Positions 14,726 to 19,339 of a DNA stretch of 64,000 bases are shown here, one piece after another; position 1 is the first letter of the stretch, and each line of letters starts with the position of its first letter. The notes below the pieces were generated by a model. It was given only the letters and a program-made list of their open reading frames with translations, had not been told where the DNA came from and did not search any database. Source of the DNA: Candidatus Delongbacteria bacterium (GTDB taxonomy: Bacteria; UBA4055); NCBI GenBank assembly GCA_016937995.1, contig JAFGVM010000016.1, positions 18,570-82,569 on the forward strand. Reading direction: 5' to 3'. The translations under genes and the position numbers were made by a program.

Positions 14726-16936
14726 CTAATAAGTCCTTGCAATACGAAACCCGAAGCCGTCGTACGCGTGGTCTGGGGCGTGGTAGTTGCGGTCTGAAAC
14801 TTCGCAGTAGAGGTCGTAGGAGTACCACGACCCGCCCCGGAGAACACGGGTCGAGCCCTCAGTGTACCAGTCCCAGCACCATTCCCACACATTTCCGCTC
14901 ATATCATATATTCCAAGTTCGTTCGGCTGTTTTGTAGCAACAGAATGAGTTTCACTTCCTGAATTACTACTATACCATGCCACATCGCTAACATTGTCAC
15001 TGCCTGAATATGTGTATCCTCTGCTCTGATTTCCGCCTTTTGCCGCATACTCCCATTCTGATTCTTTAGGCAAACGGTAGCCATTTGCTTTGAAATTACA
15101 GGATATGTTATCTCCGCTTCCGCTGTAACACTTCTGCAGACCTTCCATTTCACTCAGTTTGTTGCAGAATTCGACTGCTTCGTACCAGTTCACTTGTTCT
15201 ACAGGTTTATTGTCGCCTTTGAAGTTGCTCGGATTGTTACCCATCACAGCTTCCCATTGCGCCTGTGTTACTTCGGTTTTTCCGATGTAAAAATCGCCGA
15301 CAGTCACGCTGTGAACAGGCTTCTCGTCGCTTTCCGTTCCGCCTTCTACAAATACGAGATCCCCCAGAACTGAAGATCGTACCTTAGGAATAAACAGCAT
15401 TTTATATTTAGAAGCTAGCTTCTCATCTTTCTGGATCTTTGCATAATCTTCCCACTTTTTCTTGAATCCGGCAAGGTATTTCTGTTTCAATTCTTCACTT
15501 AGCGGTGAAGCGTTCATTTCCTCTATATCTTTGATATCTTTTTCAAACTGCGGTTTGAGTTTATCAAGTTCCGCCTGCTTATTTGTCTTGGCTTCTTTAA
15601 TTTTCTGATATACAGGTTCAAGGAGCGGCAGCAGTTTCTGTTTGACTTCGGAGTATTTTACAGAATTGACCTCGTTTCTCAGTCTTTCCAATTTTTCATG
15701 CTTAACGAAAATGTCTTCCGTCCTGTCAAGCTCATCTATTGCCTTATTATACTTGGCTTTCAACTCATTATAGACTCTTTCCTTATCTTTTGCCTCTCTT
15801 GCTTTTCTTTCTTCCGCTTCTTTTGCAGCTTTTATCTCCTCTTCCTGAGCCATTGCAAGTTTCCAGCTTGAAAGGTCTGTGTCGTCAACTTTTATGGTTT
15901 TATCCTGTATGACTTTTGGCTGATATACCGGAAGATTTTCTTTCAGATACTCTTTATTCTCATTGAATTTCTTTATTTTTGCAAGTTCGGCCTCAGAATC
16001 GTACTGGAAGATAGGTTTTGCGCCTTCTTTCTTTTGTTCTGCGACTACCTTTTCGGCATTGTATCTGAAGAGCATGAAAGGTTCATACGAAATTCCGCCT
16101 TCGGTCTGATATACGGGATTCATTGAGGGTAATCCTTGAGTTTTTGTGTAGTCTCCGAGCCTGTTGTCTGCAAATTGAACAAGGTCTTCGATCGTTATTA
16201 TTCCATCTTTGGAGAAATCAATGTCCATGGCTGAATTGGGTGAATCGTTGAGGTAGGTCATGTAGTATGTAAAAGCTCCTCTGCCTTTGTCCTTTCTTTC
16301 GAATGACTGCTGGCCTTCAGAAGCTGCGTAAATTGTTTTCACTATGGTTTTGTCGGATTTCTTTGATTGAGCAACGAGTTCTGTGTCTATAGTTGAATTT
16401 ACTTTTATACCTTTGCCTGTGTTGAGCTTTGAAGCTATTTTTTTATTGGCACCCTTGCCTTCCTTTTTGATAAAGTTCCTGCAGGCATCAACGATCATAA
16501 CCACTTCAGAAGGGCTATTTTCCTTTAATATCTGCTTTATTTCCTCAACTGAAATACTTCCGTATTTTTCGGGATTATCAATATTCCCGTCCGCTCCAAG
16601 CAGATAGTTCTTACCGTCACTTCCGCCGATCCCATGACCTGAAAAGAAGAAAACAACTTCGTCGCCTTTCTGGATTCCTCTTGCGAAAGCGGTGACATTT
16701 GAGAATAGATCCGAGGCTGTGAGCAGTTCTCCGTAGCCTGCGTCTTTTAACGCCCAGATATGATCGTCCTGAAATCCGCCCTGCATTAAAAGGTCTTTCA
16801 TTGCGTCAACATCGCCGTGACAGGCTTCGAGTGAGGCAAATGCCTTGTAGTTCTGTACTCCGACAAGCATTGCTGTCCGTTTCGCGGATAGGCTAATAAT
16901 AAATGCTAATATTAGGATGGAAAATATTTTATTCAT
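14726..16936 (-). CDS. Secreted caspase-like (peptidase C14) protein with central coiled coil and C-terminal FGE-sulfatase (SUMF1) domain
   Basis: Signal peptide [18 protein letters not shown]. The ATG at 16936 is preferred over the upstream TTG at 16951, and a GAGGA RBS precedes it. Caspase His in [10 protein letters not shown] and Cys in MIVDACRNF. About 190 aa E/K-rich coiled coil. FGE motifs [10 protein letters not shown] and GFGFR. Confidence 0.8.
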   Translation of the reverse strand: [736 protein letters not shown]

Positions 16937-16959
16937 ATAAACATTCCTCAATTAGTTTT

Positions 16960-16982
16960 GGGGACGAAAAGAATTCGTCCCC
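16960..16982 (-). terminator. Hairpin GGGGACGAAAAGAATTCGTCCCC
   Basis: Same stem as 11166-11188. It lies in the 50-bp gap 3-prime of the AAA ATPase gene. Confidence 0.6.
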
Positions 16983-18288: not shown

Positions 18289-18484
18289 TGCAAGCTCCTA
18301 GTCGGAATTATTTCAGACCGCTTTTTGCCGTTATCGGTCAATAAACTTACCAGTTTAAAATTCTAAAGTCAAGAAATTAATCCACTTTTTAATTTTTGGG
18401 GTATTGTAATCTGCCTTCATTACTACAAGGCACTTAAATACCTTGTTCATGATAACTGAACAAGGTGTCTTTAACCCCTTGTAT

Positions 18485-19339
18485 TTACTTACTCGTAATG
18501 ATCTCTATCTCTTCTTCACAGAACTCAGCGGCGTTACTCATAGATTTTTTCTTCTTATTGATCTTAATACCACGGGTCTTAACACCTGTATCTTTGTAAC
18601 TATCTTCTATCACATAAACACTTTCTGCATCCTGTGTTGTACTTGTACCGAGTTCATCTGTACTGGCATAAACAACAATCTTCTCAGTACCGAATGGAGG
18701 TGCTACAGTAAGTTCATATCTATCCTTTCCGGACGGAAGTCCATAAACTGTTCCACCGTTGAAATAGTTATCTTTTCTAAATGGGTTCGGAAGTAATTGA
18801 ATCTGAGTACCATCAACCTGTAAATATACAACTTTAGCATAGAAAGGTTTATTCCCCTTGATATAAAGTTTTATATTTTCATTTTCTTTGTACTTTTGAT
18901 CTTTCTTATCACACCATGCTTTTATCATCAAAGGTGCATTGGGGTCATCCATAATTCCTGTACTGGAATACATCTTTTCAAGTTTCTCTGTCTTTGGTGT
19001 GACTTCAACTTTTAGAGTAATTTTGAAAGATTCACCCATAATTGGATCCTGAAACCATTCTGATTTAAGCTCTTCAAGAATTCTGACCACCGCCTGAGAA
19101 TATGCTTCCATCAGATCTGCTTCAGTAACGTAATTCTTAACAACAGTCTCTGATTTCACATAAGTACCTGCAACTTCTGAAGCCATTTTCTTTGCGTTTG
19201 TCTTAGCTTCTTCAATAGTCTCTTTTCTGGATTTATCATCCCCCATTGTTGCTTTACCCTCAACCTCAATAATGATCGACTGAGCTGAGAACAAAGTGAT
19301 CAGAAAAGTTAGCATACAAAATAAAAATATCTTTTTCAT
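18485..19339 (-). CDS. Lipoprotein with N-terminal LPP20/FlgP-like region and C-terminal DUF4384-like domain
   Basis: Signal peptide present. DUF4384-like pattern LYIKGNKPFYAKVVYLQVDGTQIQLLPNP...LTVAPPFGTEKIVVYAS. DUF4384 is typically found with caspase domains. Confidence 0.5.
   Translation of the reverse strand: MKKIFLFCMLTFLITLFSAQSIIIEVEGKATMGDDKSRKETIEEAKTNAKKMASEVAGTYVKSETVVKNYVTEADLMEAYSQAVVRILEELKSEWFQDPIMGESFKITLKVEVTPKTEKLEKMYSSTGIMDDPNAPLMIKAWCDKKDQKYKENENIKLYIKGNKPFYAKVVYLQVDGTQIQLLPNPFRKDNYFNGGTVYGLPSGKDRYELTVAPPFGTEKIVVYASTDELGTSTTQDAESVYVIEDSYKDTGVKTRGIKINKKKKSMSNAAEFCEEEIEIITSK

Follow-up and report, generated by a model that had tools for sequence, protein, structure and literature searches.

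A stretch of 64,000 nucleotides (nt) from Candidatus Delongbacteria (GenBank assembly GCA_016937995.1, contig JAFGVM010000016.1, positions 18,570 to 82,569), hereafter called the window, contains a gene whose predicted product joins a caspase (C14) domain, a helical stalk and a C-terminal domain with the fold of the formylglycine-generating enzyme (FGE). This caspase-FGE gene lies on the minus strand together with its neighbours (Table 1), and the order of transcription is DUF4384 gene, ATPase gene, caspase-FGE gene and IS200 transposase gene; the DUF4384 gene, which a preliminary description of this DNA had placed two genes downstream of the caspase gene, is thus upstream of it on the coding strand. 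The analysis reported here suggests that the caspase-FGE protein is probably an exported variable protein of the kind diversified by diversity-generating retroelements (DGRs), in which a caspase is carried on a helical stalk with a rewritten lectin tip, and that the DUF4384 protein is its partner.

The caspase-FGE gene starts at an ATG with a GAGG motif before it, while the listing of open reading frames (ORFs) extends 15 nt further, up to a TTG at 16951. Homologous loci are referred to below by L numbers and NCBI proteins by P numbers. Two proteins encoded on a 219,331-bp contig correspond exactly to those of the window: P0047 is 100% identical to the DUF4384 protein, and P0007 is 100% identical to the C-terminal 511 amino acids (aa) of the caspase-FGE protein. 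As deposited, P0007 bears the name 'SUMF1/EgtB/PvdO family nonheme iron enzyme'; it starts at Met226 and has no caspase domain. Since one unbroken ORF of the window encodes signal peptide, caspase domain and the deposited part, this annotation conceals the caspase.

Table 1. Genes, domains and other features of the caspase-FGE locus, with positions in the window
Feature	Position	Strand	Details and basis
IS200-family Y1 transposase gene	13959..14405 (longer ORF start 14462)	minus	Pfam, NCBIfam
Vestige of older gene terminus and downstream region	14450..14584	minus	L173 alignment
Conserved T-rich 78-nt element right after the stop	14641..14718	minus	L174 and other loci
Caspase / coiled-coil / TvpA-type C-lectin (FGE-fold) gene	14726..16936	minus	736 aa; ORF and Pfam
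Putative DGR variable region (VR), aa 697 to stop	14726..14848	minus	NNC codons, L174 comparison
Hypervariable VR core, aa 705-728	14753-14824	minus	NNC codons
TvpA-type C-type-lectin / FGE-fold domain	14735..15346	minus	Pfam, PDB sequence and Foldseek
Long alpha-helical (coiled-coil-like) stalk, aa 357-513	15398..15868	minus	AlphaFold2 helices
Caspase (C14) p20-like domain	16259..16882	minus	Pfam, PADLOC, dyad alignment
Predicted Sec signal peptide, aa 1-18, cleavage between LSA and KR	16883..16936	minus	read by eye
AAA_14 and DUF4143 ATPase gene	16987..18288	minus	433 aa; Pfam, PADLOC PDC-S01
DUF4384 partner gene	18485..19339	minus	284 aa; Pfam DUF4384

The C-terminal domain matches the Pfam family FGE-sulfatase with an E-value of 2.3e-43, and the AlphaFold2 (AF2) model exceeds a predicted local distance difference test score (pLDDT) of 90 over it, so that the FGE/SUMF1 fold recognized in the preliminary description is confirmed. 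Its best match among PDB sequences is TvpA, the variable protein 1 of Treponema denticola (PDB 2Y3C, E 1.4e-45), with true FGEs at about 1e-15, and 2Y3C is also the top match of Foldseek (E 1.7e-22, template modelling (TM) score 0.71, root mean square deviation 2.6 Å). Judged from sequence and from the modelled structure, the 'FGE' domain is best described as a TvpA-type variable domain of DGR targets. The NCBIfam enzyme models for EgtB, PvdO, SenA and OvoA all remained far under their cutoffs (for EgtB, 45 against 360), no DinB/iron-binding domain was present in the protein, and the alignments with true FGEs stop at domain residue 167/168, before the variable region, a segment that has one Cys. 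The catalytic cysteines of FGE reside in the segment that corresponds to the variable region here. TvpA has itself been reported to lack FGE activity (PMC5758913). The earlier proposal of a non-enzymatic binding module agrees with the failure of the enzyme models and with TvpA as best match, but the domain had been taken for a fixed one, and the signature of a variable region in the same gene had been missed.

This variable region (VR) lies at the extreme C-terminus, with the layout ..RGGSW(N)n..C..R(N)nP(N)nGFR... In its core, 19 of 24 codons have the form NNC (0.79), although the genome has 34% GC and the fraction is only 0.23 outside this core; they read TAC TCC TAC GAC CTC TAC TGC .. GAC CGC AAC TAC CAC GCC .. 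GAC CAC .. TAC GAC GGC TTC. When all window ORFs of at least 150 aa were scanned, only the VR core, among 17,425 segments of 24 codons, reached at least 15 NNC codons, with a binomial probability of 9e-9. An NNC-rich core is the footprint to be expected if the template repeat (TR) of a DGR is built from AAC codons. Comparison with the closest ortholog, found at L174 and 77% identical in aa to the window protein, gave a second signature: the VR core differs at 21 first or second codon positions and at only 3 third positions, whereas the caspase region differs at 50 first or second and 144 third positions, and about 48% of the third positions are changed across the remainder of the gene. Codons 700-704 and 730-736 are almost base-identical in the two genes. 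Repeated homing from a conserved TR would account for conserved templated bases, for variation restricted to adenine-derived positions and for synonymous divergence that is saturated elsewhere. The window VR also aligns codon for codon with the TR of L173 and with the AAC-rich TRs of related DGRs. We considered the TRs of L019, L135 and L173 as cognate to it and rejected them, only about half of the mismatches being at TR adenines. The NNC fraction falls off in other orthologs (0.62 in L001, 0.50 in L002 and 0.17 in L005), which places the window copy at the 'fresh' end of this range.

The behavior of orthologs and related loci agrees with this interpretation. We collected 27 full-length homologs of the caspase-FGE protein, mostly from Candidatus Delongbacteria; in the protein alignment the caspase and stalk regions are conserved and the lectin domains are mosaic. 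At L173 (the locus of P0037) the genes are arranged in the order 536-aa caspase-FGE, HRDC, RVT_1, TR, the ortholog with caspase, coiled coil and FGE domain, YhcG nuclease and DUF4384, and TR and VR, paired over 132 nt, show 18 mismatches, all 18 of them at TR adenines. The three orthologs P0037, P0006 and P0036 have 733 aa, share 74% identity with the window protein and differ from one another only at 14-15 residues, which fall within the last ~35 aa. Among the loci retrieved by homology to the FGE domain, eight others have a 3'-end repeat whose mismatches are essentially all at adenines of the non-coding copy (L135 10/10, L115 17/18 to 19/20, L118 15/15, L141 22/22, L019 24/24, L112 21/21, L021 19/19 and L094 18/20); a reverse transcriptase (RT) homolog is beside the repeat in all eight and an HRDC gene in most. 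This sequence evidence shows orthologs of the caspase-FGE protein as active DGR targets.

Right after the stop codon of the window gene there is a T-rich element, 96% identical to the post-stop sequence of L174 (12168-12245). It contains a 15-bp, A/T-rich hairpin at 14644-14675 (CTTCTTTTTCTTTTG / CAAAAGAAAAAAGAAG), which was seen in the centroid fold, and a 129-nt segment with this hairpin folds at z = -2.5. The element also trails FGE genes of other taxa, with 81-100% identity and directly behind the stop codon, in L019 (7805-7858), a confirmed DGR target, and in L008 (9197-9232), L027 (10691-10742) and L105 (1939-2002). A T-rich element of ~55-78 nt with a terminal A/T hairpin thus recurs behind the stop codons of TvpA-type FGE genes in different phyla. 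It may be a candidate cis element for homing that travels with one DGR class.

Further downstream, the window preserves what appears to be the end of an older gene. The sequence GTTGTCCGTCTCTCATAG resembles the ..VVRLP terminus, followed by the stop, of L173 and L001, and it is followed by the hairpins GTCCTGTAAGGAC and CACGTGGTTTCAACCCCGTG; against the end of the L173 gene and its downstream region, 118/134 aligned bases are identical. Since this vestige is located beyond the present VR, stop codon and T-rich element, the 3' cassette that bears the VR appears to have been replaced. As a side observation, in L173 the 10-mer CTCGCTACGG occurs directly after the TR (9769-9785), and its reverse complement CCGTAGCGAG is found ~25 nt past the VR stop (12227-12238); the window vestige retains CCGTAGCGAGC at about 14535-14545.

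Several results weigh against reading the window protein as a DGR-type variable protein with its caspase on a stalk. No TR was found in the 64 kb, where blastn of 14700-15100 (word size 7, E<=10) returned chance-level matches, as did a scan for consecutive AAC/AAT codons, and no RT or HRDC was detected when the L173 RT and HRDC were searched with phmmer in six-frame ORFs of at least 60 aa. Window ORFs with a YxDD motif were also considered as RT candidates and discarded, as Pfam identified them as a substrate-binding protein (SBP)/permease fusion, a Fib_succ_major protein and GrpE. Among the best 120 of 6,007 homologs of the L173 RT, none was on a contig of 219,331 bp, which is weak evidence. 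The closest ortholog cluster (P0001, P0034 and P0035) has identical VRs and differences elsewhere, and this lineage looks static; P0012 and P0013 have a decayed VR (NNC 0.17, measured for P0012) and no DUF4384 neighbour, a sign that the system can be lost. The near-identical flanks of the VR could also be due to a 3' cassette that was transferred recently. For the caspase domain, finally, the AF2 model had low confidence and was kept out of inference. At the loci of P0012 and P0013 (L005, L167 and L168) genes for a CBS-domain protein and RhuM follow in place of DUF4384; with the decayed VR, the two losses, of VR signature and of partner, coincide in this lineage.

From the absence of TR and RT within 64 kb it follows that the window copy either is a remote DGR target or was orphaned recently. 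Distances of more than 100 kb between remote targets and the RT have been documented for the Treponema-type lineage (PMC5758913), and remote targets are documented also for the cyanobacterial caspase proteins that have a domain of the C-type lectin (CLec) type (PMC7517822). As far as the sequence permits us to judge, the putative identity of the VR as a DGR-written region is much firmer than its standing as live or orphan, where we give a slightly better chance to an orphaned or unsettled copy than to a demonstrably live one. The alternative that best survives starts from the same point: the VR would be a fossil, written by a past DGR or arrived with a 3' cassette, and with the retroelement gone the protein would be an exported caspase of fixed specificity. 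The missing TR, RT and HRDC, the invariant VR of the closest cluster, the decayed VRs in the family and the apparently horizontal acquisition of the gene (77% identity to L174, against 50-59% for housekeeping proteins) are all in keeping with it. However, the NNC fraction is still 0.79 in a 34% GC genome, the T-rich 3' element is intact, and targets so distant from their RT are documented for this very DGR lineage; moreover the VR third positions and flanks are near-identical to L174 while the rest has diverged, from which we argue for very recent templated rewriting. A fossil VR is therefore an account that we consider possible but rather unlikely.

The N-terminal part of the protein appears to be an exported protease. 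The hydrophobic N-terminus, ending in [SFY]A before KR, is conserved in the 23 orthologs aligned, and the protein is predicted to be exported via a Sec signal peptide. The following domain matches Peptidase_C14 of Pfam (E 4.7e-18; 66.2 bits against a cutoff of 21.4) and the PADLOC 'caspase' model (E 8.2e-11), with metacaspase-9 and MALT1 as weak PDB matches. The motifs SGH101G and DAC152R are invariant across the 23 orthologs (in the window, the His101 codon is at 16634-16636 and the Cys152 codon at 16481-16483), and a cysteine protease with an intact His101/Cys152 dyad is predicted. In the AF2 model the stalk consists of helices 357-405, 409-424, 429-475, 481-501 and 505-513, with pLDDT of about 70-90; no Pfam family matched it, and it is conserved in the ortholog alignment. 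Signal peptide, complete catalytic dyad and coiled-coil segment thus stand, the last with about 160 aa where about 190 had originally been given, the signal having been read by eye.

The second component to be considered is the DUF4384 protein, whose domain matches PF14326 with an E-value of 1.5e-22 and 79.9 bits, against a cutoff of 27. In the AF2 model (pLDDT 74) an alpha/beta N-domain, weakly similar to FlgT_N (E 0.0036, sub-threshold), precedes the DUF4384 beta-sandwich, and when the folds of known structures were searched with this model, the matches were weak and confined to Ig/macroglobulin-like beta-sandwiches; they were not used for inference. It had been called an LPP20/DUF4384 lipoprotein, and only the DUF4384 part of this name can be kept: LPP20 gave no match, even with the N-terminal 140 aa at E<=5, and there is no lipobox. 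The signal ends instead in ..A[SA] followed by QS, conserved in 22 homologs, which looks like a signal peptidase I site, so that this protein too is predicted to be exported. The family has 844 homologs with about 50% identity across phyla, and a K-T-R256-G motif adjoining a disordered loop is invariant in it.

A close homolog of the partner is encoded no more than 2 genes from the caspase-FGE gene in 7/11 distinct ortholog contexts, and in both gene orders. The window itself is one of these cases. In L170 the homolog immediately precedes the caspase gene, with a 3-nt gap and in the order seen in the window, whereas in L002-4 and L174 it immediately follows; a single gene intervenes in L169 and L173, and the distance in L125 is about 680 nt. 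More distant fusions of caspase and FGE domains in Spirochaetes (L063 and L079) also have neighbours with a DUF4384 domain, and the deltaproteobacterial locus L175 encodes a signal peptide-caspase-short coiled coil-FGE protein, a Y1 transposase, a DUF4384 protein (49% identical) and a TPR-CHAT protein. Comparison of gene neighbourhoods thus shows the DUF4384 protein as a conserved partner of the caspase-FGE protein, and the statement that DUF4384 recurrently accompanies bacterial caspases is borne out by the ortholog contexts and by L175. In previous work, fusions of DUF4384 with protease domains were reported to be frequent, and some Csx30 proteins, the substrates of the caspase-like Csx29, were reported to end in this domain (bioRxiv 10.1101/2022.08.17.504292). 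It should be noted that a large second protein is often encoded past the DUF4384 gene: the TPR-CHAT protein of 783 aa in L175 (5220-11414), a Big_7-Peptidase_C14 protein of 922 aa in L169 (1288-7568) and a WD40 protein of 1120 aa in L174 (10001-16644). These could be extra components in some lineages, with no equivalent in the window.

Caspase, FGS domains and coupling to a DGR are also hallmarks of the DGR-coupled conflict systems (Kaur et al. 2020, PMC7159879; Dore et al. 2024, PMC10907252), which share with the window locus the logic of a hypervariable lectin sensor or binder joined to a caspase or trypsin-type protease. The locus could accordingly be seen as a cytoplasmic abortive-infection or conflict system of the type proposed by Kaur and Aravind, with a MoxR-vWA or STAND ternary core, a caspase effector and an FGS sensor, and the extra caspase or CHAT protein after the DUF4384 gene in L169 and L175 would fit such a scheme. 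However, both proteins have N-terminal signal peptides, no MoxR, vWA, STAND NTPase or EAD adaptor was found among the neighbours in the window or at the ortholog loci, and the NCBIfam model 'caspase_w_EACC1' reached 53.5 bits against a cutoff of 140. Unlike those systems, the window system has its sensor and protease in one polypeptide, predicted to be exported, and we consider a cytoplasmic conflict system quite unlikely.

Between the two partner genes lies the ATPase gene. Both AAA_14 and DUF4143 were matched by Pfam, and the PADLOC single-gene defence candidate PDC-S01 matches with an E-value of 2.5e-112 over model positions 27-408 of 412, so by sequence a defence function of this ATPase has candidate status only. 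Its C-terminus gave a weak match resembling Mrr_cat (E 0.0035). The protein has no signal peptide, while both partners are predicted to be exported, and a stem-loop, GGGGACGAA..TTCGTCCCC, follows its stop codon. The ATPase is missing from every ortholog locus that we examined (L001-L007 and L167-L175); given this absence and the 3-nt spacing of the partners in L170, we conclude that it was inserted independently between them. The caspase-DUF4384 pair seems itself to have moved. A housekeeping block of the window (36653-50027) is syntenic with L174, with uracil-DNA glycosylase (UDG), ligase, OmpA, GrpE, TPR, DnaK, dihydroorotase (DHOase) and shikimate dehydrogenase genes whose products are 50-59% identical. 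The DHOase and shikimate dehydrogenase genes of L174 have the caspase-DUF4384 pair between them, while in the window the pair is ~20 kb away. This different location despite housekeeping synteny, together with the higher identity of the caspase protein (77%), indicates that the pair is mobile and suggests that the module was relocated or horizontally transferred. Its accessory origin, already proposed from the sequence, is in line with a locus that differs from that of the closest relative.

The transposase on the other side of the caspase-FGE gene matches Y1_Tnp (E 3.4e-28) and passed the NCBIfam IS200 equivalog model (76.8 bits, cutoff 55), while the NCBIfam model for REP-associated tyrosine transposases (RAYT) failed (30.1 bits, cutoff 80). 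It is flanked by a 31-nt inverted repeat (13926-13956 / 14414-14444) that carries the hairpin GGTCGTCCCnnnGGGAC. This hairpin has three copies in the window, all at 13935-14504, the third, at 14488-14504, being degenerate, and at the other end of the block (19339-19612) the hairpins are unrelated to it. The block had been described as bounded by repetitive extragenic palindromic (REP) hairpins and an IS200/RAYT transposase; the IS200 transposase with its flanking hairpin repeat is indeed there, but neither the RAYT identity nor the REP boundary could be retained. The element was inserted directly behind the hairpin region conserved with L173, and we judge it to be incidental to the caspase module. 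The recurrence of a Y1 transposase near caspase-FGE genes, in the window and in L175, was considered as meaningful and dismissed as coincidence, since the sequences are unrelated.

From these results it is possible to evaluate the original view of the locus as a REP-bounded, three-gene periplasmic module composed of caspase-FGE protein, ATPase and LPP20/DUF4384 lipoprotein, with a fixed FGE domain. The genes do adjoin each other in one orientation, a defence-candidate family is matched by the ATPase and the association with DUF4384 is real; nevertheless the ATPase, absent from all other ortholog loci and inserted between genes that only 3 nt separate in L170, lacks a signal peptide and has its own stem-loop after the stop, LPP20 match and lipobox are both lacking, and the VR signature contradicts a fixed domain. 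The DUF4143 ATPase is thus correctly identified but is not a member of the module, and the three-gene view as a whole is very improbable. Least probable of all is a catalytic oxidase of the FGE/SUMF1/EgtB type, as the public annotation implies, that would modify a caspase-processed substrate, since in spite of the strong FGE-sulfatase match and the sub-threshold matches to EgtB, PvdO and SenA, all enzyme models are far below their cutoffs, FGE alignments end before the catalytic-Cys segment, hypervariable here and with a single Cys, the DinB/iron-binding domain is lacking, and the best match, TvpA, was reported without FGE activity (PMC5758913).

Two other observations concern the rest of the window. 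Proteins of the Fib_succ_major (FISUMP) class are encoded at 5850-6662, identified by Pfam only, and at 11290-12030. The Fib_succ_major fold class is a DGR target in some organisms. The gene at 11290-12030 was considered as a second DGR target and excluded, as it has no NNC enrichment and its 3' end is without repeat. The DnaK/HSP70 homolog at 40964-43723 has 920 aa, and those of L001 (906 aa) and L174 (873 aa) are likewise long; a typical DnaK is far shorter.

Returning to the interpretation that we prefer, in which an exported caspase is carried on a stalk with a DGR-written lectin tip, the following mechanism can be proposed. The Sec signal peptide would send the protein to the periplasm or to the cell surface, and the helical stalk of about 160 residues would probably oligomerise and keep the caspase and the lectin tip apart. 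The ligand-binding face of the lectin (aa 705-728) would be rewritten by adenine-specific mutagenic retrohoming, so that the tip could bind changing periplasmic or extracellular ligands, for instance surface molecules of phages, competitors or prey. Binding might present the ligand to the protease, or might cluster the stalked protease for proximity activation. Proximity activation is general for caspases. The likeliest cofactor or substrate of the caspase would be the DUF4384 protein, because DUF4384 is associated with proteases, as in the Csx30 precedent, and because the invariant K-T-R256-G stands by a disordered loop; this motif would suit an orthocaspase specific for Arg or Lys. The DUF4143 ATPase and the IS200 element would play no part, as unrelated insertions. 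Going farther, and with little confidence, one may imagine a stand-alone exported 'antibody-guided protease' for surveillance, in which the retroelement continually re-programs the periplasmic or extracellular ligand that triggers the caspase or gets destroyed by it, and the DUF4384 protein is the conserved substrate or transducer, cut between KTR and G. If this were true, two genes would provide, in the envelope, a counterpart of caspase activation by coupled receptors, conserved across phyla.

The components of this system can be compared with others already known. FGE-type CLec1 targets with protease-related N-terminal domains, and the HRDC architecture, have been catalogued (PMC5758913). 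The C-terminal fold of the window protein, with the VR at the C-terminal end, is shared with TvpA and with the DGR targets of the FGE-type CLec1 class (category b of Wu et al. 2018; HRDC 'architecture C'). The DGR at the ortholog locus L173 has HRDC and RT, like the Treponema type, and remote targets are typical of this lineage (PMC5758913). However, TvpA is a lectin only, while in the window the lectin caps a caspase on a long stalk, and the cognate TR and RT are absent from the window. Orthocaspase-CLec variable proteins and remote targets have been described in cyanobacteria (Vallota-Eastman et al. 2020, PMC7517822); these proteins likewise have an N-terminal C14 orthocaspase and a C-terminal diversified CLec/FGE domain, and a large number of copies, as 'remote' targets or as paralogs, lie apart from the RT. 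The cyanobacterial proteins have been described as mostly cytosolic (PMC7517822), whereas the window family has a predicted signal peptide, a coiled-coil stalk and a conserved DUF4384 partner that is predicted to be exported, and it occurs in Candidatus Delongbacteria, with distant forms in Deltaproteobacteria and Spirochaetes. In type III-E CRISPR systems, the caspase-fold protease Csx29 (TPR-CHAT) acts with the partner Csx30, which in some cases has a C-terminal DUF4384 domain (bioRxiv 10.1101/2022.08.17.504292), so that a DUF4384 protein serving a caspase-like protease as substrate or partner has a precedent. Csx29 and Csx30 are, however, cytoplasmic and RNA-guided, while in the window there are no CRISPR components, both proteins are predicted to be exported and their interaction is putative.

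Caspase-lectin targets of DGRs are therefore already known, and what sets this family apart is the predicted export, the long stalk, the absence of MoxR, vWA, STAND and EAD components, and the conserved DUF4384 partner; in the seven papers examined that mention DUF4384, no connection of such a partner with DGRs was found. The analysis corrects a misleading public annotation, removes the ATPase as a false component and names DUF4384 as the conserved partner. In place of an 'enigmatic FGE domain' on a caspase, it proposes a protease with a hypervariable targeting domain, which would account for the recurrence of FGE domains on bacterial caspases. Exported fusions of caspase and lectin would then form a compact system in which to study the ligands of receptors shaped by a DGR and the coupling of ligand binding to proteolysis beyond the cytoplasm.

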